From positions 1 through 47,610 of the forward strand of contig LT635926.1 in assembly GCA_900128565.1 (NCBI GenBank): DNA of 47,610 nt. Direction: 5' to 3'. The notes under the pieces are model-generated. The model made no database searches, was not told the DNA's origin, and was given only the letters and a program-made list of their open reading frames with translations. Source of the DNA: Stramenopiles sp. TOSAG23-6 (taxonomy: Eukaryota). Shown piece after piece: positions 3,380-47,610 of this stretch. The translations under genes and the position numbers were made by a program. Within the stretch, counting starts at the first letter, position 1, and each line of letters begins with the position of its first letter.

Positions 3380-6001
3380 TCATAAAATATTATTATCTCG
3401 AACCTGACCGTGGTAAAAACTCCGAATAAGACCAATACCCATAGAACAAAGCAATGCTTGTGTAATAGCGAAACATAAGAGCATATTATTCATAGTTGGT
3501 TCAATAGATTTCGACATTTGAGAGACCGCAACAAGAATACAACCAAATACAGATCCAAGTATTGGCAAAATCATAACAAATAAACCCGTAAATGTATTAG
3601 ACACACTAATTTTTACAATATCATGTAAAACAGACATATTAAAGCCACGCGACAATTGAACAAATACAAAGTATAACATTCCACAAAAAATATACCGTAT
3701 TGAACCTCCAAAACCAAATGTATGACTTTCAGATTCTTTGAATGGATATTGAAATAATGACATTATACCTAAAACAAGTAATACTTGAAGAAATATGACC
3801 CCTAAAAATGTTTGAGCATTGCTGCTTAAATAACCTACCATAAAATGGCATGGTAAAACAAGAACTCCTAATAAAGATATATAAAGGCATGATGCAGTTT
3901 CATACCACTTAAAAAAGTAAAATGTCACTTCAGGGATCATTATAAGAAATGTTTCCTGTTGAGCATGTATTGTGAAAAAATATTTTTTTTAATCGTTAGG
4001 TACAGAATTTCGTACGAAAAAAACTACTTCGAAATTGAAATGAAAACGTACATGTAGAATAAACACAAGTATGAGACAATATGGAATACCATACATCACA
4101 CGAATTAATGAATCATTATGCGTGATATTTTCACTTCGATATTGACGTCGAGTTTTTCCAATGAATTGATTATTATTGCTGAAATCATCTTTAGATGTAT
4201 TTGTGTTTTCAGTCACATCAAAACGAATATCTTCAACGTTTTTCATTTGTCTTATATTTGATATCTTGTCCATATTTTTGGAGAGTTCTATTGTATCACA
4301 CTTTTTAGAATCCAAATCACAGTTTGACAAAGAATTATAGTTATTCACCTTGTTCCCTTTTAACAAACCGTATGAGGCTGTTGAAACAGGTCTAATAGCA
4401 TTTGATTCGTGAGAGTTGGTATCAATATCTTCAAATTTCATTATGATAAAAATTAGCAAAATAGTCCACATACATGCCAGTAAATAACCCGGTACTGGAT
4501 GACCCGCAAATTTCATGACTGGAATATTAATTTCAGTGTGATATGTAATGATAAAACCTGCAAGCATTGGGCCAAGGAATAGTCCTACTGATCCAGCAGC
4601 AACAAATATAGCAGAAGCATATGTTCGTTGTCTCCTTGGTACAAATGATGATATATATCTTCTAGATAATGAACCAGAGCAACCAAGGCCACAAAGAATG
4701 CGACCGCAAACAAGCATCCAAACATAACCAAAATAACTTGCTAATGCATACATTAAATTCCCAAAAATGAGTAAAACTACACTAAATATAAAAGTGTTTT
4801 TGAAACTTCCATTAAAAATTCTTTCTGCTCTGTATCTATAAGGAATAGCAACTAATAATGATGCAGCTGGCATTGCGCCAAATGCCACTATACCAAAGCC
4901 AGGATTGTGTAAGGCAGATGCGTAGTTTTCTACAGTAGGAAGGATTATATAATGTATTTTGGAAAAATATTTCAAAAAAACAATCGTTAGGTACAAAATT
5001 TCGTACGAAATAAACATTCAAAATTGAAAAAAAATAAAACATACATGATTTGTTGTATACAAAAGAGTACTAACAGCACTAATTATTAGTGAATTTTTAG
5101 AGTAGACAATATTTATCTTTCCCTTTTCTTGTCGTAAACAAGGTTTCAAACACAACAAAGATGTTCCACTTTCTTGTGAATCACTACTGGTACTACTCCA
5201 GTCTACGTCTACAGAATCATCTGATGAGTTGTTATACGTATCATAATTCGAATCAGAAGCAATTACAGATAGAACATCTAAATTAGCCAAATCCATCCAG
5301 CTTCCAGCTTCTTTTGCACGGAAATGATGTTTATTTACATCTTTTAATAAGGTACCAATCATAACTGTAATTTCTGCTTCGTCACTTGAACAAGTTGTAG
5401 CAGAGATTAAATTGGCAGCTCTTAGATTTTTCATTGTCCCTGACATTTTAGACACTAAATCAGTCAAAATACTATTATACTGAAGACCTTCAATAGACTC
5501 ACGACGATAACCAGATTGATAACTTTGTAAGAATTCTGTTGTTATTGGATTTGTTGAGATTTTTTTATCATGTTTTTTCAATATTTTCCGAAGACCAGTC
5601 AAATTGAGCTCAACATATTTCAATAGTCTCACAATTTGTTGGCCGAGTTTATTGTACTGATTTAAAAGTTGCTGACCTAGAATATCTTTTTCTTCTGAAT
5701 TACTTTCACTTACTCTACTGCCTACTCTTGAAGTTTTTACTCTATCACACAAATCAAGAAATGCTATTCCTTCTTCTTGAATCTCTGCTTCCTGTTTCGA
5801 ATGAAAGACAATGATTTTGCTAAGCTCCAACTCTAGTTGAGTCACAAAAATACGCTGCTTAATTTCAGTAAACGAAGAATTGCCATCTTTCTGGCACAAA
5901 ACTATCGCTTTGATACGTTTCTTTAGACTTTTATAATCTAAATATTTATCCTTCCACTCTTGATCAAGAGTTTCGTTCAGCTTCTTTGCAAATTGAACCA
6001 T
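3380..6001 (-). CDS. SPX-domain MFS vacuolar phosphate transporter (SPX-MFS/PHT5-like); exons 6001-5045, 4951-4052, 3964-3380 (~813 aa)
   Basis: SPX motifs MVQFAK..W..KYLDYKSLKK and YVELNLTGLRKILKKHDK; MFS motifs GNLMYALA, GRILCGLG, RRYIS, GL.LGP. Removing two family introns gives LLYTTNH|YIILPT and FILH|AQQETFL. Confidence 0.9.
3965..4051 (-). other. Non-canonical family intron (GT...AT), 87 nt, phase 0
   Basis: Minus strand CAT|GTACGTTTTCAT...TTTCGTACGAAATTCTGTACCTAACG...AATATTTTTTCACAATACAT|GCT; contains an in-frame stop. A CAG 9 nt downstream is an in-frame alternative but would shorten a TM helix. Confidence 0.85.
4952..5044 (-). other. Non-canonical family intron (GT...AT), 93 nt, phase 0
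   Basis: CAT|GTATG...TTTCGTACGAAATTTTGTACCTAAC...CCAAAATACAT|TAT; in-frame TGA inside; removal restores N-H-YIILPT; first downstream AG is out of frame. Confidence 0.88.
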
Positions 6002-6420
6002 TGAAAGCTATCAAAATTAAAGAATTTAATTTGCTAAAAATAATATTATCGTTTATAGCAGTAGTCAATAATATTCCATTAATGGTTAAATTTGAGGTAT
6101 TGTGCGCGGCTAGGAATACAATACGCAATCGATAATATGATGATTATGTAAACACCACAGACCAAGCCCAAGGCAAGGAAGAATAATATATTTTGGATCA
6201 TGGGCCGGCCAAGAAATGAAAAAAATTGGCTTCGGCTTCTTCGTCTGAAAATCCAATTTCGAATTTCAACAAGTCCGAGGCGAGAGTCAGTCAAATCTTT
6301 CAAAATTTCATTATAAATAGTCCACTTTTTCTTAGTATAATATTATAGTAGGACTCTTCCACAGAACTTGAAAGCGTGTTGTTCATGAAGAGGTAGTCAA
6401 ACACACCAACCAAAACACAA

Positions 6421-9085
6421 ATGGACGCATTCCATCGTGATGGATACACTGTAATTCGTGGCGCAATTTCGCCAACCTCAGTTGAAAGCTTTACTGTGCA
6501 ACTTAATGAGGAACTATGTTTGAATTGTGGAACTGGGACAACTGATCGAACTTTAGACAGCGTTAATCTATCAGAGCCTAATACATGGCCTTCTGGTGGA
6601 TCTCGTCGCGTTGTTGAGTGTGCTCCGTTGGGAGTTGGGTCGCATTGGAATGATCTGAAACAATCTAAAGTCCTGAGTGAAGCATTAAACGCTTTATTAG
6701 GAAAAAATTGTTGGGAAATACCTCTCAACACAGCGGATAGTTGTATACGACACTGGTACTGTCCTGTATCATTCCCGGAGCATAGTAATTTAAACCATAT
6801 TGATAGTAAATATAGTAGTCAACATAAAGCAAAAAATGCTGTACATAAAGTCAAGAAAAGAAAGAATTCTACACAGTCTATTCATACTTGTACAAATTGT
6901 GGCTCAATATTTCCCAGTCGGAACAAACTTTTCAAGCATTTACCTTGTGATGATCCAGTCACTACAATTTCTAACGGAAATAGATATAAAAAAAGTAAGA
7001 ATCTGAATGATTCAAAACATATAGATACTAAAAAATATTCCATTGAAAATACACAAAAACAAAACATTGAAAATACACAAAAAAAAAATCCAAATCTTCG
7101 ACGAATAATTTTAGAGTCTTGGAAAGATGAATTAAATCGTATTTCAAAGTTTAAAACCTCGCCCACTCAACACTGGCAGCCTGTGAGTAGACGTAGATTT
7201 CGGGGTAAGGGATGGCACATTGATATTGGCCCTGGTTTTCCAGTGGATGAATTGCGTCGATTATGTACGTTAACCCTAACCCTAATCATCATTTTTTTTT
7301 ATATTTTTTTTTCTTAGTAAAGTTTGTACCTAACAAATTTCTAATTTAAAATATTTTTTTCACAGTACATCAGGTAGTCCAATTCAAGGAATGGTTGTAC
7401 TTGTTTTGTTATCTGATTGGACTATAGGTAGTGGAGGAACAGCGATGATACCTGGTAGTCATAAATGGGTTTCAAAACAGTTATACAAATCGGAGTCTTT
7501 AAGCCCGCCTGGAATTTCACATTCAGATCTAAATAATTGGTGTGTTCAGTATGTACGTAAATTGGTTGATGATGGAAAATTATGGATAGAAAATAATAAT
7601 AATAATAATATCAATAATAATAATAATAATAATAATAATGAAAGATTTATTGTCCGTCAGATATGTGGGAAAGCCGGTGATATTGTATTAATGCACCCAT
7701 GGCTTATACATTCAGGTACAACAAACATGACGAATGTACCACGTTTGATGGCAAATGGTATGATTCAAATAAAAAATAGTGTTTTTTCTCGTGAAGGATG
7801 TCGCCTTCTTCAAAAGAATTTCGAAGAAGAAGATACAATGGGAATTGAAATATGTTCAGATAAAAGAAAAAAATCTATTGTTTCACCAAGAAGTTCAAAA
7901 GTAAACAAAAAACAGAAAAAAGGTAGCAGTGAAACTAATTTTACTGTAGAAACAAAATGTAGTACAGTTATACGACCTCTTCGTCTCCCATTACCGATTA
8001 TTCTACCAAAAGTTTCAGTAATTATTCCTATATATAACGCTTGTCCTTGGTTACATGAATGTTTATCATCTATACTATCTCAATCTTATTTTCATGAATA
8101 TCAAGGATCTATCGAAGTATGCATGTATGATGATGCAAGTACTGATGATTCAGCAAAAGTCATTTTAGAATGGAAATCAAAATTTATAAATGCTGGTTTT
8201 GAGTGTGTATGTAATGGACACGGTCCATATTGGGTCGATAAAACAAATATTCCTGGTGGTGCAGGTAATGCAAAAAACATGGCAGTATTAAATAGTACTG
8301 GTACTTTTCTTTGTTTTATTGATGCCGATGATTATATGAGACCTGATAGAATTGTAAAACAATTAGCATTAGTACAAGGTCGAGATGATGTACTGATCGG
8401 CTCAGGTTTTACAAGGAATCCTAATGATGCAACTTTACATTATTCAAATTGGTGCAATTCTTTAACAAAAAAACAATTATTTTTAGAACAATATCGCGAA
8501 ATTACAATTATTCAACCCACGTGGTTTTTATCACGTCGCCAATTTGATCGTGTCGGTGGTTATGAGACTCAGTCACCAGATTCAAATTCACCTTTTCCCT
8601 CGGATCTTGTATTTTTTCACTCTCACTTGGATAAGAATGGTTGTTTGGATAGAGTAAATGAACCATTAGTTACATATCGATATTTAGCAAATAGTGTTTC
8701 ATGGCGCATTCCACGAAAAGTATTACTTCAAAAACGTTTACGTGCTTTAGAAAGGCGTGTTTTATCGAAAAAGAGATGGGGGAAATTTACAATTTGGGGA
8801 GCTGGAAGAGATGGGAAAAACTTTATTAACGAACTTTTACCAAAATACAGATCTCAAGTTAGTGCTTTTTGTGATGTTGATTATAAAAAAATCAAAAGAG
8901 GTTATCATAACCATAAACCTCGCCCCGCTGGATCTCCACCTATTTCAATACCTGTAATACATTTCACCGAAGCAAAGGCTCCTATCATTATATGTGTTGC
9001 AAAAGGACGTACTGGTGGTCAATTAGAGAGTAATATTAAGTCTCTTGGACTTATTGAAGGTTACGATTATTGGCACTTTTCATAA
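6421..9085 (+). CDS. Fusion of PhyH-like Fe(II)/2OG dioxygenase, C2H2-like zinc finger and GT2 glycosyltransferase (B3GNTL1/QTGAL-like); exons 6421-7264, 7371-9085
   Basis: F..DGY.VI, WHID, GGT..IPGSHK, GKAGDIVLMHPWLIHSG..N...PR (PhyH, split across the intron); CTNCGSIFPSRNKLFKHL; VSVIIP.YNA..WL.ECL.S, DDASTD, CFIDADD, PTWF, FTIWGAGRDG, AFCDVD, TGG.LE.N..SL.L.EG.DY.HFS (B3GNTL1-like). Confidence 0.85.
7265..7370 (+). other. Family intron (GT...AT, or GT...AG at 7373), 106 nt, phase 1; carries TAACCC repeats
   Basis: TTAT|GTACGTTAACCCTAACCCTAA...TGTACCTAAC...ATATTTTTTTCACAGTACAT|CAGG. The first CAG (7365) is out of frame; CAT (7370) and the next CAG (7373) are in frame. Confidence 0.8.
7591..7639 (+). 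repeat. (AAT)n microsatellite encoding poly-Asn
   Basis: Run of aat triplets inside the ORF. Confidence 0.9.
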
Positions 9086-16201: not shown

Positions 16202-17211
16202 TTAATTTCGTTGAAATGGCATCCTTTCAGTAGCTGTATCAAAGTTTGAATAATTTCTATTGTCACTTCCAATCGCCATTGCAATAGATATTGCAGCTTC
16301 TGCTGTAGCTGAGACTGATGCAAGTGTAGGAGTTGTTTCTCTACTATTTTCACTGGTGAGATAAATATCTATTGAATTTGGAATTTCTTCATGTAGTAAA
16401 CTATCAATATGATTCGCGTTCTTTGGGCTTCCCCCAGGTGCTGCAGCAAATGCATTCTGGTCATTACTTCCTCCTGTACTGTGGTTTACTAACTCCTTAT
16501 TCACATCATTGACGTAAGGGATGTATTGTGAAAAAATATTTTAAATTCAAAATTCGTTAGGTACAAAATTTCCTATGAAAAAAATTTTTTTTAAATTCAT
16601 GATAAAACGTACGCAATCGAACTAATGCGAGCTTGCATACTATTTATTTGTTGGTGCATGAGAGAGATGCGCTCTTCAAGAAAAGCAAAATTAGATTTTT
16701 CAAAATTTTCTCTATCATCATCAGATGTCTCATTGTATATTATAGTATCACTCACAGAGCCATAATCACTATTATAGTTGGAAACAATGGAGTCAGAATC
16801 ACTATAACTATCAAATTTTGTACCATTATTATCGACTTTCTTATTCGTTGACTCAAAATTCTCTCTCACTACATTTTGCTCAATATATTCATCTTCACTG
16901 TTCTGTTGTGTATCGATATGCTCCATGTAAGATATAAAATCAACATAGGAACAAATACCATTTCCCAAAAGGTCAAATATCTTCGGCACAACTTCTAGTT
17001 CATGAGCTGTTATACGAACAATTCTACACAAAACTTTTCGAAACTCGATGTCTGATACGATTCCAGTTTCTTTGCTGTCAAATTTTTTGAATTCTTCATG
17101 CATATTTTTTTGGTGTGCCAGGCCGACATACGAATAAAATCTAAGTTTTTTCCTTAACTTTGCAAGAACTGTCGCGACTTTGGTGAAATGATTCAATTCT
17201 TCAGTTGACAT
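16202..17211 (-). CDS. EF-hand protein; exons 17211-16613, 16520-16202
   Basis: EF-hand loops FDSKETGIVSDIEF and FDLLGNGICSYVDF; removing the family intron joins the two ORFs in phase 2. Confidence 0.7.
16521..16612 (-). other. Non-canonical family intron (GT...AT), 92 nt, phase 2; upstream exon ends GC
   Basis: ATTGC|GTACGTTTT...GAAATTTTGTACCTAACG...ATATTTTTTCACAATACAT|CCCT; no in-frame AG within ~30 nt downstream. Confidence 0.8.
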
Positions 17212-26208: not shown

Positions 26209-28075
26209 TTAATTTTGTAGCAAATGTCGTTTTTTGTTAATAATTTCCCTAACAATATTCATTACCTGAGTAAAATCTGTTGTTGGATTTAATTTAACAT
26301 AGTCTTTCGAAGCAACAGTTATAATTGAACACCATTTTGGTATATATGCAACGAGCATCACCAACAACTTATCTACTTTTTCAATAGTCACGTCACTTTT
26401 ACCCTTACAACGAAAACTTTCAGAAATTCTCAAAGCTAAATTTTTTCTCAAAATTGTTGTTTTTCGTCTTGTGCTGCAGTATTGATGTATTGTACAACAA
26501 ACATCGGGCAATAGCTCAAGTAACATCATCTGAGTATGATGCTTGGCTCGTTTTTGGAGCACATTTGCATTTTCTTCTTTTGATCGAATTGTAGCAAGTA
26601 AATCAGAAATATCTGATGAAGACGTTGAAGATTGTGAATTCTCCAGTGGATTATGTATTTTGGAAAAATATTTCAAATTGTTTTTTGTTAGGTACAAAAT
26701 TTCGTAAAAAAAATCGAATTTGAAAAAATATAAACCATACATGGATCGGACCAATTAAATCATCAGTAGATGACTTTTCATTTTGTCCACTCTTTGATTT
26801 TAAACTTGCTATGGACTTCATAGCTATTTTGTCTGCTTCAATATCATTGCAAGGTGGGTATGGAATATCCATTAAATTATCGATTTTTTTTCTGTTTGTA
26901 TGAGGATCAATAGTAGAATTAAGAGAATCTCTATGAGTTGAATTACTTTCTAAAGCATAAGCATCTTGCTTTATTTTTTTCTCTTTCAACACATTTTGAA
27001 GATGATCACAGAGACGCTGATACATTATATCAATGCGAAGACTTAATTTTTCTCCCGATGCCGAACTTTTTTTCCGAGATGTACAGTTTTGTAATTGTGT
27101 TATTTTTGTAACGTCAGGATTAATTAATGAAATGTTTTCTGATTTTTTATTAACACCACTATTTGAAATATCCATACCATTCCGCTTAGTAATGTCATAA
27201 AGCTTTTTACGTTTCNGTTTTTTACTTTTTACATTTGAAGTAAGAGTCGTAGAACAATTAAATTTAAATTTTTCTCGAGTGAATACAATTGCAGGGGGTT
27301 CTCCGACATTTCTCGAACTTTCTAAAAAAGTAGCATTTTGTTCTTTTGAATTTCCGTTCATTACATTCTTGACATGCGCTGGCCAATCTATATTATAATC
27401 TGGATCACCACCTAGAAGATACTGACGTGTAGGGGTAATTACATAAGCTTCCTCATATAAATTAGAAATTCGTCGAAGATGTTCAATTGGAAAGGAACGT
27501 TTTGTCGCATGTTCAACAGCAGATTTTATTCGTGAAAATACAGAAATTTGACGCCGTGTTTGCATTATTGTCAATACTGTATCAAGAGCACCAAATGTAT
27601 GGAGTAATATGCTGTAATTTGGAGGCAGAGTTATTGTTTTAGATTTATTTGATTTTCCAGAATATTTTTTGTTTAAATATTCTGCAGTAGCTGTATTAGG
27701 CATATTCTCATTGGTCACTTGCGTAATCTGTCTTCTGTTTTCATCTCTACGACGTGACGTTTTACGTAAAGAAGACTTCTCTAAAGATGTATAATTTCCC
27801 CTTTGTCTTACTGATGGGGCTTGCATTTCGGATCGCTTCCGTTTTTGGGGATGTGTATCAAAGAGATTATCGTCAGCGTTGCGCCGCTTTTGTGACAGTA
27901 GACAACGTTGGCGTTGCATTGGATTTTGAAACAAAAATCGTTTTCGTGCACGTCGGTTGGATAATGCATTCAATACTTTTGAACAATTTTCATCATTCCT
28001 TTTGTTTTGGGACAACTTTATACCTTTGGTATTTTCCATTAGGAATGATGAGTTGTTTTCACTATTATTGCTCAT
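26209..28075 (-). CDS. CDT1: DNA replication licensing factor Cdt1; exons 28075-26741, 26652-26209
   Basis: LP.NY..L...F.ALDTV..I...R.....F..IK.AVE..TKR.F...HL..I..L (CDT1 domain); C-terminal winged helix LPDV...I....RK...L..L...IP.W. Confidence 0.8.
26653..26740 (-). other. Non-canonical family intron (GT...AT), 88 nt, phase 0
   Basis: ATCCAT|GTATGG...ACGAAATTTTGTACCTAAC...ATATTTTTCCAAAATACAT|AATCCA; length is not a multiple of 3 and removal joins the two Cdt1 ORFs. Confidence 0.85.
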
Positions 28076-28561: not shown

Positions 28562-31336
28562 TTATTCACTTTTAACATCTTCAGCTTCTCTACGCAATTT
28601 CTCAGCCTCTTCAGCTTCTCTACGCAATTTCTCAGCCTTTTCAGCTTTACCTCTTGCGCGGTGCATAGCTTTTTTCTCAGCTCTCAACTTTGCTTTTTGT
28701 GCTTGTGCAATTCCTTCAGGAGATGACGCAAATGTTGCTTCACTAGATTCCATGTTACGTTCAAATACCATAACCATCTCACAGTGATCAGTACTAGGAA
28801 ATAAATCTACAGGTTGGGCATGAACAGGATAAAATGGAATCCCAGGAATTGTATCTCTTTTGCCTCTTGCTGATCTGCAAAGTTCTACCTGTTTTATATG
28901 TAATATATTTATTGTCAATATAAGTAAGAGTTTTTTATTTCATTTTTTTTCTGAATGTAAAACACAAAAAAAAATTAAATAAAAGTATATATTAGATGGC
29001 ATCACGAAATAGGTTTGCCTTTAAAAAAATAGTAGAAAATAAATAGTAGTATAGATTAGATGGCATCACTGAATGGGTGTGCCTTTCAAGTTTTCTTTTC
29101 ACAACAATTTGTTCAATTGACGCGCATGAAAATCTCCTCATTTCAAATAAAACTATTATTGAAAACACAAAATATGTAAAAAAACAATGTGAGGAATTGA
29201 AAACACAAAATATGTAAAAAAAACAATGTGAGGAATATTACGTACAGCATTACTAAGTAAAGAGCCAGAAGGATTACATGAAACATATACCAATCTCTGT
29301 ATTGCGCTACAACTACGAATAGCTTTGATAGTATTTTGATGTAAACCACAACGGGGAGGGTCCACGATAGCAACACATCTCAATTCATCAATTTGTAATT
29401 TACTACTTTCGGTTGTTTTATTTATTTCAGTTGTTTCATTGTTTGATGATGGTGTTTTATTTATTTCAGTTGTTTCATTGTTTGATGATGGTGTTTTATC
29501 CCAAGTAGCAAGCATTTGCTGCAATCCTTTCTCAGCTGGTGCACAAACAAATTCACAATTTGAAATACCATTTAACTTAGCATTTTCATTCGCAGATTTA
29601 ATAGAAGCATCAACAATATCAATACCAAGAATATGTCTCGCGTCTTTAGCCATACTGAGTCCAATACTGCCAGTACCACAACACACATCAACAACTACTG
29701 TATTTTTGTCTGGTTTGACAAATTGCTTTACTGTCTCGTATAAAACTTCAGCAGCTTTTGTATTAACCTGAAAGAATGCTTGTGGTGCAATTTGGAATTT
29801 CAGACCAAGTAATTCTTCTTCATAATAAGAGAGACCAAAAAGAATTTTTCTGTCAGCATTATAAGAAGCATTTGAACATCCTCTAGATTCAACAATATGG
29901 AGTGCAGATAATTTGGCAAGACTCGATGTGTCTTGTTTTTCATGTGGTCCAATACCAGGAAAAGTACAAAAATGTTTAGTTAAGGATTTCAATTCTAAAT
30001 CCCATTCTGGATGGACACGAAATCCGTCATTTCCACTATCTTTGACACTTTCAACAATGTCACCATTTTCATTTATAAGTGGCGTTGCTGCTTCAATAAC
30101 TACCATTAATTGACCTGTGCGATTAGAATGTCTAACTGTCATCATTCGCCAAACACCAGATGACTTGACCTTATCATACACTGAAAATTTTGACATTTTG
30201 GAACAAAATTGTTGCATTGCTTCAGCTGCAATTAACGAAGGTTTGTCTATGTTTGAACAGTTTTCTGCACTACAAACTGTTGTAGTGTGTAAATAATGTC
30301 CAATACGAAATCCAACTGAAATATCATTTTTTGTATTTTCAACTGAAATATCATTTTTTGTATTTTCACATTTTATACCAGGTTTTGAATTTGTCCAGCC
30401 AATAGTAAAAGATACTTTATTTCTATATGCTTTTGTATCAGGTGATGCTTTGATAGTTTCTAACGCACAAACTAAACCTTTGTTTTTGTATAAATATGAA
30501 GGTAAACTTTTCACAGTTTTCTTATCTTTGTTAATTGATAAAAGGCGTTGTACATCAACACCTCTTCTCTCGGCTTCTTCAAGTGAAATTTCTGGACAAT
30601 TAGGAATTTTGGTAAATTTTTTACGCAATCTTCTAGCAATACGCAACATATTCTTACGACTTTCTTCTTGTTTTAGATTGAGTTGTTCATCATACGACAT
30701 TTTCCACAAAGGAGTGACAACGTCTTCTATACAGCTTGGAATTTCATATTTCTCTTCTTTTTTTTCTTTTTCTTTTTTTTCTTCTTTTGGTTTTGAAGCA
30801 CGAGTTTCGATATCACCATGTGAATATTTACAGCGTTTACCATATTTACACTTACCTTTCTTTACGAAACTAAAACATTCATCAACAGTTGAAGACAACT
30901 TTTTTCTTTTTGGCGCGCACTCATCAGCACCAACCTGTCTTCTTTTCAGAGTTTTTTTAATCTGTTTTTGTATTGCAGGGACAATTTTAAGTATAGAATT
31001 TTTATATTTTATACCTTGCATTTTCTCTTTTGCTATATCCTTGGTGGCAAGTGAGTCAAACTTTATAAAAGCCGTATTTCCATTTTTGATTTTCTTCACA
31101 GAAGAGAACTGAATACCTGCTTTTGTCAAGAAAGTTTTTGCGTCATTCGAGCCTGCCCATTTCCAAGCACCTTGTCCAAGTATACAAAGTTTCAAACTAG
31201 TATCGTCAGAAGATTCCATTGCTTCACGAATTTCATGTGTAAGTACCATACTTGGGGAATATTCTACTTCCATAGGAGAGTCTGTAGACTGAGTAGCGAC
31301 GGTGTCAGTTGTTTCTACTTCTTTGGTGGATTGCAT
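28562..31336 (-). CDS. TRMT2A: tRNA (uracil-5)-methyltransferase TRMT2-like with RRM-like and CCCH regions; exons 31336-29246, 28888-28562
   Basis: DVVTPLW...Y.EQL, YRNK..F.IG, F.I.P.AFFQVNT, DVCCGTG.IG, AIVDPPR.GL, LVYVSCNP, PVDLFP.T.HCE.V. Confidence 0.9.
28889..29245 (-). other. Ordinary GT-AG intron, 357 nt, phase 0, with internal tandem duplications
   Basis: GCT|GTACGT...TATTGAC...AAAACAG|GTAGAA gives SNA|VELCRS; lacks the family TACCTAAC and CACAATACAT boxes. Confidence 0.85.
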
Positions 31337-34597: not shown

Positions 34598-35728
34598 ATG
34601 CCAAATTTAAAACTGCAGCCAGATTTACGCCGAGTGTCCTTTGATAGTCCAAAGTACACCTCAGTACAAGGTAGTGAAATTGAATCTCTGGAAGTACCCG
34701 GAGAAAACAGTTTAGTACTTGCTCCTGAAAGAAATGAGGCATTGAAAGATTCATCAGATTATAAGAAAATAAGTTTATCCATCTTGTTTCTATTATTTGG
34801 TTGTTTAGAGCTAGTATTGAAGCGATGGTTATTTCTCCATAAATTCCATTTTCCGGTTTTTACAGCTTTTGTAACTCAATTATTTTGCTCTTTTGCTTTA
34901 TTATCTGGTCTTTTACTTCAACTTTGGAAATTTTCTCCTGAACGTAAAGAGCCATTTTTTACTGATTCTTCTTTATGCTGTAAGTTACTGGGATTAATGT
35001 TGCTACATGGTGGAAACGTCACATTAGATTTGGTTGGGTTGATGGAAATGCCAGCTGCTGTTGTTAAAGTAATCCGAACACCTAAACCTCTTTATACCGA
35101 CTTACTCACGTGGGCATTTTATGGAGTTCGTAGTACTAGGAATCAATGGTGTGCAATGATTTTAACATTATTTGGTGCCATATGCACAATTGCTAAAAAC
35201 CCACATGTTACAATCCTTGGTTTAATATCAGTGTCTGTTGCAGCTGTGTTTTCAGCTGGTCATTTTGTATTAGCAGCGTCAGTTATGAATGTTTTATTTT
35301 TTTTTCAAATTCGAATTTATTTTTCATACGAAATTTTGTACCTAAGGATTTTTTTTTTTTTTTTTGAAATATTTTTCTAAAATACATGAATGATAATGGT
35401 GTAGACCCTTTGTCTCTCATGCTATTACTCAGTGCCCCATTAACTATATTTTTAATACCGATTGTTTCATATGTAGATGGATTTACAAATGTAATTGAAT
35501 TTTGTGATCAACCCGGGGAAATGTATGTATGTTTTTTTTTTTCAATTGTTTTGTCTACATTTTTTTTTTCAATTGTTTTGTCTACATTTTTTTTCTAACA
35601 AAATTAAAAATGCTTTTTTGAAATATTTTCATACAATGTATAATGTTTTATCAGCTTTACTTCCAGCGTCAATTATATCATTTTTTCATAGTATTTTAGG
35701 TTGGTATCTAATTAAGTGGACGACACCG
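34598..35728 (+). CDS. TPT/SLC35 nucleotide-sugar transporter, C-terminally incomplete; exons 34598-35286, 35388-35526, 35642-35728
   Basis: FHFPVF.AF..Q, L...L..M......VIR..KP, DPLSL....AP, LIKWTTP; many TM helices; the usual last two helices are absent. Confidence 0.7.
35287..35387 (+). other. Family intron, 101 nt; GA...AT in the family register (GT...AT if slid 4 nt)
   Basis: GTTAT|GAATGTTTT...TACGAAATTTTGTACCTAAG...ATATTTTTCTAAAATACAT|GAATG; 7-nt direct repeat ATGAATG; removal restores frame. Confidence 0.8.
35527..35641 (+). other. Family intron (GT...AT), 115 nt, phase 0
   Basis: ATGTAT|GTATGTTTT...TTCTAAC...AAATATTTTCATACAATGTAT|AAT; internal ~27-nt duplication; removal gives GEMY|NVLSALL. 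Confidence 0.8.
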
Positions 35729-35823
35729 GTACGTTTTCATTTCAATTTCAATTTCAATTTTTTTTTTCGTACGAAATTTTGTACCTAACGATTTTAATTT
35801 TTGAAATATTTTTCATAATGAAT
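35729..35823 (+). other. Family intron at the TPT / PA-domain junction; 3' end uncertain (35819 or 35823)
   Basis: CCG|GTACGTTTTCAT...TTTCGTACGAAATTTTGTACCTAACG...AAATATTTTTCATAATGAAT. Confidence 0.7.
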
Positions 35824-37186
35824 GTAGCCCTTTGCTTAATACTTCTGTAGGGTTAGGGTTAGAGGATTCTGTACCTAACACAAATAAAGATGACACAGCA
35901 TATGTATGTTTAGAAGGAGATGGTATCAATAATGACAATCCACCTTGTTTATCATGTACGTTTTCATTGTGAATATCAAATGTATTTTTGTTTTCATAGT
36001 AAATTTTGTACCTAACGATTTAAAAAAAATACTTTTTCACAATACATCAAGTATCAAAGGTAAAGCCGTTATTATGCTACGTGGCTCTTGTGACTTTTCT
36101 ACTAAAGTAAAACATGCTGAACAAGCTGGTGCTGCAGCAGTTATTGTTGGTAATTATAGAAAAGATGTAAATGAAGGCAAAATTAAATCTTATTTTAGTC
36201 GGTATACTACAACATACAAAACAACAACTGATATTATTAGTCATGAAAAAACTGATAATGATTTTCAAAGTATTTATGGTGATGAGACTGTACGTATGAG
36301 TAGTGATGATATTATTAGTATGAGCCGTGATTTTAGTGATACAACTGAAATCCGAATGTACGTGTATATCATTTTAATTTTCATTTTAAGTTTGTTTTCG
36401 TACGTAATTTTGTACCTAACAATTTTTGAATTTTTGAAATATTTTTTCACAAAACATTCCTTCAATATTTTTGTCTCTCAATGATTTTCGTACTTTTCTT
36501 TATCAATTAAATGAACAATATAGAGCGAAAAGTTCAGATATACATTCAAATGTATCAAACGATACACGCGAAATTCATGTAAAATTTCATGGAAAATTAC
36601 ATCAAACAAAGCACAAAGGACTTCATTTTAGAGATTTAGGTTTACATGTACGTTTTCATCATGAATTTCAAAAAAAAATCATTCTCTCTCTCTCTCTCGC
36701 TGTCTCTCTCTCTCTCTCTCTCGCTGTCTCTTGCTTCCTCCACTGCCCATGTCTAAATTCTCGCGCTCTCTCTCTTCTCTCTTACTTCGTCTCTCTCTCT
36801 CTCTCTCTNTCTTGCTATCACTCTCTCTATTCCTCTTCTCTGTCCGTGTCTCAAGTTTTTTTTTCGTACCAAAATTTGTACCTAACGAATTTTTTGTACG
36901 CAAAAAAAAATATTTTTTCACAATGCATCCTTTTGTACAAGTTAGTAATGCTAAAGTCAAAATTTCAAATGTCAAGAAAATTGATATTAATAATAGTAGT
37001 ATTAGAAATATGCCAACTCCAATGAATCAAGCTTTTTCTGAAAGTAAACTTGAATGTGTTTTGTCTTCAATTTCACATTTGAAAAAAAAAGATAAAATAT
37101 CTCAAGATGAAGAAATTATTGATGAAAATTCAAGTCGTCAAAAAGTTCTGATTAGTAACGTTCAAATATGTAGAAATAAGAATTAA
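35820..37186 (+). CDS. PA (protease-associated) domain protein, 5'-incomplete or fused to the upstream transporter; multi-exon
   Basis: Spliced product CSPLLN...SIKGKAVIMLRGSCDFSTKVKHAEQAGAAAVIVGN...IRIPSIFLS has the classic PA-domain motif order. Confidence 0.75.
35847..35903 (+). other. Candidate 57-nt minimal family intron (GT...AT), in frame and stop-free, with GGGTTA repeats
   Basis: TCT|GTAGGGTTAGGGTTAGAGGATTCTGTACCTAAC...GACACAGCATAT|GTA. Confidence 0.55.
35956..36047 (+). other. Non-canonical family intron (GT...AT), 92 nt, phase 1
   Basis: TCAT|GTACGTTTTCAT...AAATTTTGTACCTAACG...CACAATACAT|CAAG; the AG 4 nt downstream is out of frame. Confidence 0.85.
36358..36457 (+). other. Non-canonical family intron (GT...AT), 100 nt, phase 2
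   Basis: CGAAT|GTACG...TTCGTACGTAATTTTGTACCTAAC...ATATTTTTTCACAAAACAT|TCCT; restores the PA motif IPSIFLS; no AG from the branch box to >60 nt downstream. Confidence 0.9.
36648..36928 (+). other. Family intron (GT...AT), 281 nt, expanded by a CT-rich microsatellite
   Basis: TTACAT|GTACGTTTTCATCATGAA...(CT)n...TTCGTACCAAAATTTGTACCTAACG...CACAATGCAT|CCT; removal is in frame. Confidence 0.8.
36683..36853. repeat. Imperfect (CT)n microsatellite
   Basis: Runs of ctctct within the intron. Confidence 0.9.
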
Positions 37187-42614: not shown

Positions 42615-45600
42615 TCAGACTGTTTTAACATACATTACATATTTCGGTTGCATTATGCTGGCCACCCTACCAATTCGAAAATCTTTTTCACTGTCAGGAA
42701 TAGCGCAGTAGGGAATATCAGTCAATTTCGGATCGGAAATATCCCTGTTCAACTCAAAAAGCTCTCGTTGGAGACGTTCATGATAGTACTTTTTTGTGTT
42801 TTCCTCGACACAGTCCAATTTCAAAAACTTAGATACTATCAATGCTTTGATTGATGGAGAAGTATCTTCAGATGAATATGTCATTGCTGAATGAATACTA
42901 GTTGTAGAATAAATACCAAAGCCATGTATTGTGAGAAAATATTTCAAAAAAAATCGTTACGTACAAAATTTCGTATGAAAAAAAACTTAAAAAGTTGAAA
43001 TAGAAAACGTACATGCACACTTCGCTTCAATTTGGAAAGGTCAAAACCATGTTTCATAATAGAAAAAATATTTCGTGGTTTGGTACCATGAAACGTCCAA
43101 TCAAATTGAATCTCTGGAGTTTTTGGATTACTTTCAAATTGAGATTTTAATTCCAGATATTGATGCTCAAGACGTGGATTATTGCAATATACAACTTTAT
43201 CTAATTTATATTTCGCTAATGTACCAGATTGTTCGTTTGATCTCTTGAATATTTCTTCTGCAATTGTATAATTAGGGTCACCTTGATAGATAACTTTGCA
43301 AAATGAAAACGTTGGATGTATCTGAAATTCTACAAATATTCCATTATGGTCAGATGCACCACTTTCCAACATATCTAATACCCGATGTGAAACTAATGTT
43401 GCAGGGAATTCAGATGCATGGCATTGTTTAGCAGCGACCATGGTATCAGATTGTGAAGGTTGAAGTTTTTGAGATATCAATTCGAAGGACATAGATTCTT
43501 CAGAATTAGGTTTAAATTGAGATTCTTCTTCAAATTCAGGTTCAGGTTCAACTTGAGATTCTTCTCTAGATTCAGGTTCAGGTTCAACTTGAGATTCTTC
43601 TTTATATTCAGTTTTTCCTTCAAGTTCAATTCGAAAAAGAAAACGCTTCTTATAAAATACTCCATCTGGAGTACCACCATATGCAGAAGTTATTTCTGCA
43701 ATTTCTACAGGTGTGTACTGTGTTGGAAAAAATATGTTTTATATTTGAAATTCGTTAGCTTAGGCACAAAATTTTATACCAAAAAAAAAACAAGATTAAA
43801 ATTAATTATGAAAACGTACATTCTCATCAATGAGATATTTTTCTGGTAGAGAATTCCACTGTACTATATCACTCTCTGTCCAGTTTAATTTCTGTAAATA
43901 AGATACATTGTTTCCTCTGGAGTCACTATTCAAATCACCCAAGATAAAATCTGAATTTTGATAAACAGCAACTTTCAATAATTCTAATTTAGCTTTTTTT
44001 ACATCAATACCATTACTAAATATAATTGACTCGTCATTCGATCCACCACAGAGATGGACATTTGTTATGGTATATCTATCAAGTAAATTATCGGTTTTTC
44101 CATCAGTAATTTTTGGTTTGATTGTAATTGTGTTAATTGCTCTATGAGTTGGACAAGTTTCCTGATTTTTTACAACTTCTAATTGATGCCATCGTTCATT
44201 ATCTATCACCCATAAAGACTCATCTCGAATATATATTGACATACTCTCCGTATGCATATCAATATAAGATTTTCGGGAATATCCAAAAAGATGTAAATCA
44301 TCAAAAGACTCCTGAAGTACTACAACATCTGGAGTACTTTCAGCTAAATGTTTATTCAACATATCTTCAACATTTTCTCCACGATTATTATAAATATTGA
44401 AACTTGCAATTTTTAATGGTATAGATGTACTTCTTCTTCTTGACTTATCTAGATGCATAACAATCTCTTTTTGTTTTTCTACTCTCAAAGTAGAATAAGT
44501 CGTTATTTTAGAACCCAATTCAGGTTCATATTCAATTGTAACCCTAGGAACAGTTTGAGCTTTGTCCATTAAGTCAGTATCTTGTAAAAGCATTTGAATA
44601 GCATCTGTGCTATCTTTGCTTTCTTTTCCAGGATTCGTACGCAGTATATCTATAAATGGTACTCCTAAATGAAGAATTGCTGCTCGGAGAAAAGTTTCGT
44701 CATTCCATAATTCAGGATTATTTTTCATAATTGGATTCAAAGTCTCAACAGATCGAATGACAATGTTATGGCTTAGAAAACATTTCAAAACGAAGTCTCG
44801 ATTATTTAAGAATTTTTTTGCAGCTTTTCCAAATGTTTCTTTGGCATCTTCATGTAAATAAATTTCAGACCAAATTTTAGGAAATTCATTAATATTTTGT
44901 AAAACAAATGCAACATTTGAATATAAATCAAAAGGTACAAATTCAAACATTGACCAATCTTGTTGAATAGCATATAATGCGATTTCTTTCTCATTCCTCA
45001 AATCAGGAGATACGTAATAAAAATTATCCGAATTCTGTTGAATAGCACATAATGCAATTTCTTTATCATTCTTCATATTTTCTGGGATGTATTGTAATGC
45101 TTCGCCATTTTTACAAACAACAGAAAAAATAAAATCACGATCTTCAAGTAAAGCTGAAGAAAACACATAGTTCAATACATGACGTATCTTAAAAAATATG
45201 TCAAATTCGAAAATCGTTAGGTACATTTTTTTTAACGTAAAAAAAGATATTGAAATACATTATGAAAACGCACAGGAAATTTTTCACTTGCATTTAAAAT
45301 AAAGTTACGATTAGCAAGTAACTCTTTTGTCGCATGTTCCATGATAAAACCGAAGAGAAATTGAGCATTGGGAATTTTTAATACGTCAAGTATAAATGCA
45401 GAATCGCCACGCAAAGTCACCGAGGCATTTTGAAATAGGTTTATTTCATGACGCAAAATCTTCAGCATAAAATTGGCATCGCTACGTAACTCTGAAGAAC
45501 CAAATTTTATAAAGACTACCAACTTTAGAGAATCTGTAGAGTCAAGTATTTTTCTTTCTTTTTTGAGTTGAAAAATATCCCTCAAAAGAATATCCTTTAT

Positions 45601-46408: not shown

Positions 46409-47503
46409 ATGGTGGATATAAAAGGATTTTTCATGAATTTTTTGTCAAAGTCGCAACCTGTGGATCAATTCCAGGAGCACTGGAAAAGCGTTCAAAATAG
46501 TCATAATATTTTAGTAAGACAATCTAAAACGTACAATGATGTCAAAGCTTTAAAAGCGTCTAAAATTCCGGATAAGTTGCGTCACATGTTAAAATTATTA
46601 CTTGAAGAACAAAATGAGTTCCTTGAGTTTGATGGTGGAGGTGTAAGTGACGTTCCTGCTGCTGGTCCTTGCCTTGAGTTCCTTCTTAATAGTCGGTTAG
46701 TTGAGTCATTATGCATGATGGGCTTAGCAGATACTCCTCATGGTATGATGTCGATTGTTCTCCAAACAGTCTATGTCCTCGTAAAACACGTGAAAAGTTC
46801 CTTATTACCTCATATGTTTGTACATGCCCCAGTATGTCAACTGATTTTTGTTACCTCTGAATTAGTGAAAGATTTACGTTCAAAGGCGGCAACTGAACAT
46901 ACAGTGAACCAAAAAAAAGTTCAGTTGGCACTCGTTGCACTTATAAATGCTATATGGTGGAGAATTAAAGAGGATACATCACAGCTTAGTTTTTTTATTC
47001 ATGAAAATAATACGAGAAAATATCCAGATATTGTCATTTTTACTGCACTTTTACCTTATATTCATGTAGGTTCCTACGTACTATATTTTATTATTATTTT
47101 TTTTCCTTTTTTTATAGATAATTTCGTACCTAACATTTTTTTTAGTAAAAATATGTTTCACAGTATTTGTACGTGGACGTATTGGTGAGTATGCTCGAAA
47201 TGCTATTTTAACTGTAATGCAGTTAAATAATCTCTCCAAAATATCGAAAATGATAGTTCATGTATGTTTTTTAACCCTAACCCTAACCATATATGATGAT
47301 CATGAATTTCAATTTTTTTTTTTTTCATAGTACATTAAATTTTCATACCTAACAAAAAAAAATAAAATTTGACATACTTTCACAAAATACATGCAACTAG
47401 TTTTTGTCATCGAATTGTCGAAGGCTTAGTAAGATCGTATAAAGTGTTACCGATGACTTTTGAAGCTGCAAAAACTGCATCAAATTCGACAACGATGTTA
47501 CAT
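46409..47503 (+). CDS. FHIP/FAM160 (RAI16-like) protein, runs off the window; exons 46409-47065, 47169-47261, 47393-47503
   Basis: F..HW..V, L..EE, GPCLEFLL...L...LC..G..D.P.GM, LLPH..VH.PV..L; spliced LLPYIH|VRGRIGEYARNAIL and IVH|ATSFC...GL...Y..LP. Confidence 0.85.
47066..47168 (+). other. Family intron, 103 nt, apparent GT...TT ends
   Basis: ATTCAT|GTAGG...TTCGTACCTAAC...ATATGTTTCACAGTATTT|GTACGT; with this donor the internal CAG is out of frame and leads to a stop. Confidence 0.7.
47262..47392 (+). other. Non-canonical family intron (GT...AT), 131 nt, phase 0; carries TAACCC repeats
   Basis: GTTCAT|GTATGTTTTTTAACCCTAACCCTAACC...CATACCTAAC...CACAAAATACAT|GCA; next AG is out of frame. 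Confidence 0.85.
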
Positions 47504-47610
47504 GTACATTTTCATCATGAATTTCGAATTTATATTTTTTTTTTTTGAAAATTTTGTACCTAACAAAAAAAAAACATTTTTTTTTTTTTAGTTTTTTTTC
47601 GTTACATTTT
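47504..47610 (+). other. Family intron at the window edge (possible end TTACAT at 47607)
   Basis: TTACAT|GTACATTTTCATCATGAA...AAATTTTGTACCTAAC; downstream exon not visible. Confidence 0.65.

Follow-up and report, generated by a model that had tools for sequence, protein, structure and literature searches.

The 47,610-nucleotide (nt) stretch of DNA analysed here (positions 1 to 47,610 of contig LT635926.1, forward strand, from Stramenopiles sp. TOSAG23-6; hereafter the window) contains a family of short introns of about 100 nt, copied into many genes of this marine protist, whose members carry a conserved box, TACCTAAC. It is probable (we put the probability at roughly 70%) that this box is the branch-point sequence of a family of introners, i.e. 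transposon-derived introns, removed by an ordinary U2-type spliceosome. The unusual part of these introns is the acceptor, which in most copies is AT, and the box does not account for it. Intron-terminal AG is among the most fixed signals of eukaryotic genes; a family which pairs an ordinary donor and branch site with a 3′ AT singles out one question, how the site of the second splicing step is chosen.

An earlier note on this DNA had drawn attention to positions 36398-36457, proposing that an extended branch box and a 3′ box at a fixed position point to a modified or dedicated spliceosome. This region constitutes the 3′ two thirds of a 100-nt intron (36358-36457, forward strand; GTACGT ... 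TTTTCGTACGTAATTTTGTACCTAAC ... GAAATATTTTTTCACAAAACAT), referred to below as the focal intron. Its excision at the GT and AT ends set a priori leaves an open frame, with the intron in phase 2 and ATT as the split codon, and brings ...TTEIR next to IPSIFLS... in the protein. The upstream exon matches the Pfam domain PA (2.5e-11). A search for homologues of this exon found none and a PDB sequence search with the PA exons gave nothing usable, so the junction of the focal intron is placed by reading frame and motif plausibility only. As described in the earlier note, the 3′ box ATATTTTTTCACAA of this copy (36439-36452) lies 5 nt upstream of the intron end at 36457. The window as a whole has a G+C content of about 34% and contains long open reading frames with few interruptions.

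Copy number and conservation of the box

The box TACCTAAC has 14 exact matches on the two strands of the window (1.00 expected, standard deviation 1.03; 0 of 100 shuffled sequences reached 14). Thirteen of them are located in copies of one intron family, and the fourteenth (35872-35879) is an exonic chance occurrence coding for S-V-P-N-T. The extended box TTTTGTACCTAAC occurs 7 times exactly and 18 times with up to two mismatches (2.14 expected; 15 of the 18 in family copies), while the 3′ box ATATTTTTTCACAA occurs 4 times exactly and 15 times with up to two mismatches (3.5 expected; 9 of the 15 in family copies). In addition to the 13 copies found via the box, 4 more diverged ones were detected with a profile of the 3′ module, the training set of which included the exonic chance match at 35872. 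This gives 17 copies in approximately 8-10 genes, all of them in sense orientation with respect to the flanking reading frames. Hidden Markov models (HMMs) built without the box, from the 33 nt at the 5′ end or the 28 nt at the 3′ end of the element, recovered 10 and 15 of the 17 known copies, respectively, and revealed no further copies in the window, so no family member that is detectable there by its ends has lost the box. Searches of other sequence collections gave no family copies: in viral contigs all 28 matches to AAATTTTGTACCTAAC were chance occurrences in coding DNA, and in prokaryote genome contigs, which contain at least 120 matches to the 3′ box pattern, none of the matches listed belonged to the family.

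The earlier note had stated that most copies keep the box while the flanking A/T tracts drift, and the alignments bear this out. When 15 copies were aligned with MAFFT, no other 8-mer was intact as often as TACCTAAC (11 copies), the next ones being AAATATTT (8), the donor GTACGTTT (6), TTTTCACA (5) and the central palindrome (3-4); among all 17 copies the box is exact in 13 and is better conserved than any other block. Within the element, the A/T tracts that separate the blocks differ in length, and contigs from RNA libraries display 1-3 nt insertions or deletions in the tracts adjacent to the box. In the 3′ box, column identities range from 0.87 to 1.0 in AAATA and from 0.67 to 1.0 in the T-run. 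In a gap-free alignment of 30 columns comprising all 17 copies, the T, A and A of CTAAC are invariant, and the proportion of mismatched cells rises from CTAAC (3/85, 3.5%) through TAC (3/51, 5.9%), AAA (4/51, 7.8%), TTTTG (10/85, 11.8%) and the upstream T-run (21/136, 15.4%) to the left palindrome arm CGTACG (39/102, 38.2%). The whole box has 6/136 mismatches (4.4%), compared with 74/374 (19.8%) in the 22 columns upstream of it, and is better kept than the adjoining palindrome arm (nominal Fisher p = 4e-11); much of the variation in the arm is the split between two subfamilies, CGTACGAAA and CATAGTAAA.

In the three copies that have decayed furthest, GTAC is lost and CTAAC is kept or re-created: TTCTAAC is kept at 35527-35641, ATACCTAAC is present at 47262-47392, and TGCCTAAG is accompanied by a fresh CTAAC, two bases downstream of it, at 43819-43718. 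In these copies it is yUnAy, the universal branch core, that persists, and the extended word does not. Most of the longer TTTTGTACCTAAC reflects family consensus passed on by descent, and selection can be seen on the CTAAC core; the postulated need for an extended or novel branch signal is not borne out by these copies. CTAAC or a one-letter variant of it is found in 17 of 17 copies, followed by a run of 5-7 T, as in U2-type introns. The box, which the earlier note took for a branch box, also occupies a U2-type branch position, 31-43 nt upstream of the 3′ end, which is the usual range of U2-type branch distances, and it probably serves as the branch site.

Conservation of the box could also result mainly from mobility at the DNA level, with the box acting as a subterminal binding motif and not in splicing. 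The motif TGTAC does recur along the element, as ATGTAC at its 5′ end, CGTACG in its centre, TGTACC in the box and in inverted form at its 3′ end, and the subfamilies differ in the central palindrome and have the box in common, as would be expected for constrained master copies. Inserted non-autonomous copies are, however, without selection for mobility, yet the most decayed ones retain or regenerate CTAAC and lose GTAC, and it is T-A-A of the branch core, and not GTAC, that never varies. A role in mobility as the main cause of the conservation is therefore unlikely.

Intron ends and the AT acceptor

The ends of the introns were set a priori from the family consensus, i.e. 5′ at GT and 3′ at the T of ...ACAT. 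With these ends the frame is open in 12 of 16 testable copies (one third expected by chance), and the remaining 4 fit after small shifts or with shorter flanks: (i) in copy 35729-35819 the frame fits with an AT end 4 nt earlier, (ii) in copy 35527-35641 it fits with a donor 4 nt later, (iii) copy 47066-47168 has a TT end where the family has AT, and (iv) the exons around copy 47262-47392 are shorter than the test flanks, which explains the failed a-priori test.

Reading frames fix an intron end modulo 3 only, and two junctions were therefore compared with homologues. In the SPX-MFS transporter gene, removal of the copy at 5044-4952 from GT to AT joins STLLYTTNH to YIILPTVENYA, which aligns without gaps to the pattern TFLYMxNYYIVxPTxxxYA in 13 of 13 homologues. 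In the PhyH-glycosyltransferase gene, removal of the copy at 7265-7370 from GT to AT joins GPGFPVDELRRL to SGSPIQG, gap-free in 11 of 11 homologues. The latter copy ends with ...TTTTTTTCACAG TACAT, and a CAG located 5 nt upstream of the end (at 7365) is bypassed; an intron from GT to this CAG would shift the frame. Two other placements were considered for this copy. If the CAG end is paired with an AT start lying 2 nt upstream, the protein gains a residue that is absent from all homologues. An ATTATG start combined with the CAG end preserves the length and was set aside by parsimony, as this donor would be unique among the copies. The coordinates of single-exon Pfam matches proved too coarse as junction evidence, and a PDB sequence search with the MFS exon returned nothing usable for the junction.

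At the inferred ends, the terminal dinucleotides of the 16 copies are AT (13), TT (1), GT (1, ambiguous) and AG (1). A 3′ end other than AG, as implied by the earlier note, is found in 15 of 16 copies, and the YAG acceptor of U2-type introns is represented by one copy, perhaps two. The ambiguous GT-ending copy (45273-45182) has an in-frame AAG and an in-frame CAT nearby, and its candidate 3′ ends AAG, ACGT and GTCAT are all in frame. In the copy with AG (43718-43819, minus strand) the frame is kept by the CAG alone; conversion to an ordinary AG intron may have taken place here. In the TT-ending copy two internal AGs would shift the frame. Between the box and the intron end AG occurs 5 times, compared with 13.0 ± 2.8 in shuffled sequences; this depletion was disregarded as evidence, since all copies derive from one AG-free ancestor.

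The donor is GT in 15 of 16 copies, with the consensus GTAYGT, and resembles the U2-type GTRNGT. The sixteenth copy starts with GAATGT (35287-35292), and the frame demands a cut exactly there (split codon ATG), so the donor dinucleotide is not absolute either. An AT stands directly before the donor in 13 of 16 copies and at the intron end in 13 of 16; in most copies the mRNA is consequently identical whether the register is GT-AT, TG-CA or AT-AC. The GT-AT register is preferred because three copies are without the upstream AT (ccg, tgc and cct directly before GT) and 15 of 16 start with GT. The terminal GTA...TAC can pair in 13-15 of the 16 copies, in repeats too short for the naming of a transposon superfamily, and the intron ends exhibit no covariation (88 paired cells, 87.2 in shuffles). 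The short inverted ends (AT, then GTA...TAC, then AT, with a cut after each AT) look like an inherited target duplication and an inverted terminus.

Taken as a mechanism, each element, lying in sense orientation inside a gene, would bring its own splicing signals: the donor GTAYGT; the branch core CTAAC, whose second A is the presumed branch point; and a U-run of 5-7 bases, some 10 nt from the end and presumably the polypyrimidine tract, followed by the terminal block CACAATACAT. The exons would be joined right after the terminal YAT, as the homologues confirm for two genes, at a site fixed by the element's own end and not by its distance from the box, and a component of the machinery would accept U instead of G as the last base of the intron.

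It is tentatively suggested, as a possibility that we consider rather doubtful, that the major spliceosome of this organism has been re-tuned, in co-evolution with the introner, to read YAU as the end of the intron, even where a well-placed YAG lies 5 nt upstream. The composite 3′ signal would then consist of CTAAC, the U-run and CACA-N4-AT. Re-tuning of this kind, if real, would imply that a trans-acting part has changed heritably, with a U2AF1/U2AF2 paralogue (as in Fritillaria) or a changed Prp8, Slu7 or Prp18 as the likeliest candidates; a U2 small nuclear RNA (snRNA) reading GUAGGUA is far less likely than any of these.

Recognition of the introns by the spliceosome

The earlier note had suggested a strong branch box combined with a positional ruler, and a potential hairpin abutting the box. 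In the 16 copies, the presumed branch A lies 31, 31, 32, 33, 35, 35, 35, 35, 36, 37, 37, 38, 40, 42, 43 and 43 nt from the 3′ end. Given this spread of 12 nt, the box does not act as a ruler; the position of the cut is constant relative to the last ten bases of the element (CACAATACAT and its variants), the TT-ending copy included. The hairpin can form in the focal copy, whose minimum free energy (MFE) fold contains a 5-bp GUACG/UGUAC stem (z-score of the whole intron, -0.85), and it is not conserved across the 17 copies: 68.6% of the cells of GTACGAAA/TTTTGTAC are paired, compared with 69.1% in shuffles, and the outer G-C pair is present in 7 of 17 copies. An alternative hairpin based on the palindrome is not better than its shuffled controls either, with 80.9% (76.8% in shuffles; 42 of 500 shuffles as high), and 10 whole introns gave no shared fold (z-scores from -2.21 to +0.72).

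Only one non-family intron was identified in the window, an ordinary GT-AG intron in a tRNA methyltransferase-like gene (29245-28889, minus strand). As the earlier note had observed, it contains neither the box nor the 3′ box; CTAAC is absent from it, and its possible branch sites are CTTAC or TTGAC. Its donor hexamer GTACGT is common to it and the family, which argues for one machinery, a comparison that with n = 1 says little. The intron also holds a 38-nt tandem duplication (29158-29236; 2.1 copies, 97% match).

Against the standard U2 sequence GUAGUA (Rfam consensus, paired by hand), the box would form 4 contiguous pairs around a bulged A, or 7 with one C bulged as well, and may be recognized in this way. 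A U2 snRNA reading GUAGGUA would pair fully with the box. The window contains no Rfam match to an snRNA at the gathering score. Metagenome contigs were scanned for U2 genes whose conserved flanks are separated by 7 bases rather than 6; four were found and confirmed as U2 by Infernal (85-103 bits), with the stretches GUAAGUA, GUAGUAA (twice) and GUAGUUU, on contigs of 41-62% G+C that carry no family copy. None of the GUAGGUA type was present in the contigs scanned, a collection that may or may not include DNA of this organism, so the negative result is weak. The extra base of these four genes, which are unrelated to this organism, lies in or beside the branch-pairing stretch, which is unusual for so conserved a site.

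These data bear on the dedicated or modified spliceosome of the earlier note, in which a variant U2 (e.g. GUAGGUA) pairs with the whole of UACCUAAC, and this anchor together with a distance replaces AG recognition. It would explain why the full 8-mer, beyond CTAAC, is intact in 13 of 17 copies and why the UAC just upstream of the core has 3/51 mismatches; standard GUAGUA, moreover, gives the box 4 contiguous pairs and needs a bulged C for 7, and the four metagenome genes demonstrate that U2 with a 7-nt stretch exists in nature. On the other hand, none of these four reads GUAGGUA or is accompanied by a family copy, the decayed introns lose UAC and retain CTAAC, the 31-43 nt span leaves no ruler, and the donor is that of the ordinary intron. 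In Fritillaria, where 95% of the introns are non-GT/AG, the branch-recognition sequence of U2 is reported to be strictly conserved (PMC13326754). Nothing in the window or in the metagenome contigs scanned speaks for a variant U2 snRNA of this organism, and we regard this explanation as highly improbable; a dedicated spliceosome is not needed for the box, though one is conceivable for the 3′ end.

Removal by the minor (U12-type) spliceosome, or by a hybrid one tolerant of odd 3′ ends, was also considered. The box matches 6 of the 8 letters of the U12 branch box TCCTTAAC. It is located 31-43 nt from the intron end, whereas TCCTTAAC is expected close to it, the norm for U12 introns being approximately 10-26 nt; the U-run of the family is likewise unlike U12 introns. 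The donor consensus GTACGTTT differs from RTATCCTT, lacking the defining TATCCTT (5 of 8 letters agree, with TCC missed), and no U11, U12 or U6atac gene is present within the window, which is silent on the rest of the genome. GT-AT has been documented both as a rare U12 pair and as a rare U2 pair, and accounts for 7 of 66 non-canonical U12 introns and is reported as competent for U12 splicing (PMC1557818). On balance, U12-type removal is quite unlikely.

RNA evidence was sought in two seawater metatranscriptomes, the only public runs found to contain parts of the region (shares of 0.13 and 0.07). They yielded 702 and 5 contigs on the region, respectively, mostly short pieces of many family copies covering the central and 3′ modules. 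The fifteen contig joints listed all connect repeat modules from different introns, by sides of only 21-25 nt, and were taken as false. At 35157-36423 contigs of one RNA library, the one with 702, pile up on the central and 3′ modules (summed word depth of 8270 in one bin), so the family is abundant in the RNA library of the sample or in DNA carried along with it. One variant derived from the contigs has TACCCAAC instead of the box. The metatranscriptome result neither demonstrates nor refutes splicing.

Several points weigh against the assignment of the box as the branch site of introners removed by an ordinary U2-type spliceosome. Among the metatranscriptome contigs listed there is no splice joint over a family intron and no lariat, and one 315-nt contig, the sole listed piece at that place, runs unspliced from the focal intron into the next exon (36395-36668). 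Thirteen of the 17 copies were first detected through the box itself, a bias which the HMM search with the ends only cures in part. The box is not distinguishable from the adjacent upstream AAATTTTG in its conservation (6/136 vs 14/136 mismatches, p = 0.10). Moreover, the copies are related by descent, in the two subfamilies, so the mismatch counts are not independent and the Fisher p-values are nominal. Finally, we know of no unmodified spliceosome that accepts a terminal AT on this scale, which makes some change of the machinery likely.

The unspliced contig, together with the lack of a spliced one, would also fit elements that are not spliced from RNA at all, being excised from the DNA or residing in dead host genes. 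Contigs of RNA libraries can, however, derive from pre-mRNA or from library DNA, long intact frames flank every copy, the domain spacing is exactly restored in two genes, and the donor, the branch core and the U-run follow one another in spliceosomal order. The absence of splicing is therefore scarcely credible.

Comparison with known introns, and features of individual copies

Introners are intron families of transposon origin in Micromonas, Aureococcus, Chrysochromulina, Symbiodinium and others (PMC9860276, PMC12130899). The family described here resembles them in its many near-identical short copies, inserted in sense orientation at unrelated positions of unrelated genes (PMC9860276, PMC12130899), in the putative transposon marks of a short direct repeat at the borders (AT or CAT) and very short inverted ends (GTA...TAC), and in an element that brings its own splice signals and whose removal leaves the length of the mRNA unchanged. 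The features by which introners are recognized, similar copies in different genes and restoration of the frame (12 of 16 copies a priori, homologue spacing in two genes), are both found. Unlike the published families, which are GY...AG, the copies have AT in 13 of 16 cases and one verified bypass of CAG. A 2025 survey of introners considered 3′ AG or AC only, and discarded families with unfamiliar splice sites unless they were supported by RNA. The box is, in our view, a real branch-site box in a new, AT-ending variant of transposon-derived introns.

Non-AG 3′ ends on a large scale, with an otherwise conserved U2-type core, are also reported for Fritillaria borealis and its relatives (PMC13326754). 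Fritillaria introns depart from the canonical dinucleotides at either end, and with great diversity, whereas in this protist the donor is GT and one 3′ dinucleotide is preferred. The odd 3′ ends of Fritillaria are read by duplicated U2AF1/U2AF2 paralogues (PMC13326754). A second marine protist, Amoebophrya, has repeated introns with direct repeats at the borders, terminal inverted repeats and non-GT/AG borders (PMC7789003). Its inverted repeats of 8-20 nt form hairpins that join the ends, and it has no preferred terminal dinucleotides (PMC7789003); in the present family, by contrast, the inverted ends comprise about 3-5 nt without covariation, and there is a strong linear donor, branch core and U-run. 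Two cox1-like gene fragments of Amoebophrya have a G+C content of about 54-58% (PMC7789003), compared with about 34% in this window. The near-invariant CTAAC motif, in a window with few other introns, recalls the yeast-like branch sites of intron-poor eukaryotes (PMC2483917). In those organisms the motif precedes a normal AG (PMC2483917), whereas in the present case it is part of a mobile family and is followed by AT. A literature search covering main texts found no report of GT-AT introners or odd introns in marine stramenopile genomes, and the term "introns" had zero occurrences in the main single-cell genome papers in the search listing.

The positions of all copies, of the signals in the focal intron and of the ordinary intron are presented in Table 1.

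Table 1. Introns and intron signals located in the window.
Feature	Position	Strand	Remarks
Focal family intron	36358..36457	+	100 nt, GTACGT...AACAT; PA-domain gene
5′ splice site GTACGT of the focal intron	36358..36363	+	GT in 15/16 copies; same hexamer as the donor of the ordinary intron
Proposed hairpin GTACGTAA/TTTTGTAC	36400..36415	+	5-bp stem in the MFE fold of this copy
Extended box TTTTGTACCTAAC	36408..36420	+	core CTAAC 36416-36420; presumed branch adenosine 36419, assigned after the TACTAAC model
3′ box ATATTTTTTCACAA	36439..36452	+	U-run (presumed polypyrimidine tract) and start of the terminal block of the element
Terminal AACAT of the focal intron	36453..36457	+	cut after AT
Family copy	3965..4051	-	exact box
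Family copy, SPX-MFS transporter gene	4952..5044	-	junction verified by homologues
Family copy, PhyH-glycosyltransferase gene	7265..7370	+	ends CACAG TACAT; junction verified by homologues
Family copy	16521..16612	-	exact box
Family copy	26653..26740	-	exact box
Ordinary GT-AG intron, tRNA methyltransferase-like gene	28889..29245	-	GTACGT...AAAACAG
Family copy	35287..35387	+	box TACCTAAG; donor GAATGT
Decayed family copy	35527..35641	+	GTAC lost, TTCTAAC kept; ends GTAT
Family copy	35729..35819	+	exact box; 3′ end ambiguous (35819 or 35823, both AT)
Family copy	35956..36047	+	exact box
Family copy	36648..36928	+	281 nt; exact box; internal TC-rich repeat insertion
Family copy, PARP-like gene	42924..43012	-	box TACGTAAC
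Decayed family copy	43718..43819	-	box TGCCTAAG, then new CTAAC; ends CACAG/TACAC
Family copy	45182..45273	-	exact box; donor GTGCGT; 3′ end ambiguous
Family copy	47066..47168	+	exact box; ends TT at the family-typical position
Family copy	47262..47392	+	box ATACCTAAC; CCCTAA telomere-like repeats after the donor
Family copy	47504..47607	+	exact box; at the window edge

The introns affect the annotation of their host genes. A public predicted coding sequence for the SPX-MFS gene (3965-6007, minus strand, 99% identical) misses both family introns. It forces a GT-AG intron that deletes the conserved SAVSTLLYTTNHYIILPTVE stretch, loses a conserved membrane helix, reads through the second family intron to a stop codon, ending with ...VRFHFNFEVVFFVRNSVPND, and drops 18 residues of the SPX domain (VGSRVSESNSEEKDILGQ). 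Errors of this kind suggest that the predicted proteomes of such organisms are systematically wrong, and the box is useful as a search handle by which such introns may be found and the gene models corrected.

Individual copies display further peculiarities. If the copy starting at 35729 is cut at 35823, the upstream transporter-like gene ends 8 codons later; with a cut at 35819 the frame stays open and continues into that of the PA domain, for which no in-frame ATG of its own is present nearby. The two possible ends could represent alternative ends or a fused gene. The longest copy (36648-36928) contains, between its 5′ and central modules, an imperfect TC-rich repeat of about 150 nt (36672-36830), so large insertions within the element are tolerated. 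Two copies have 2-3 units of the telomere-like repeat CCCTAA directly 3′ of the donor module (7271-7287 and 47272-47290, forward strand), and GGGTTAGGGTTAG is present also in an exon, at approximately 35850.

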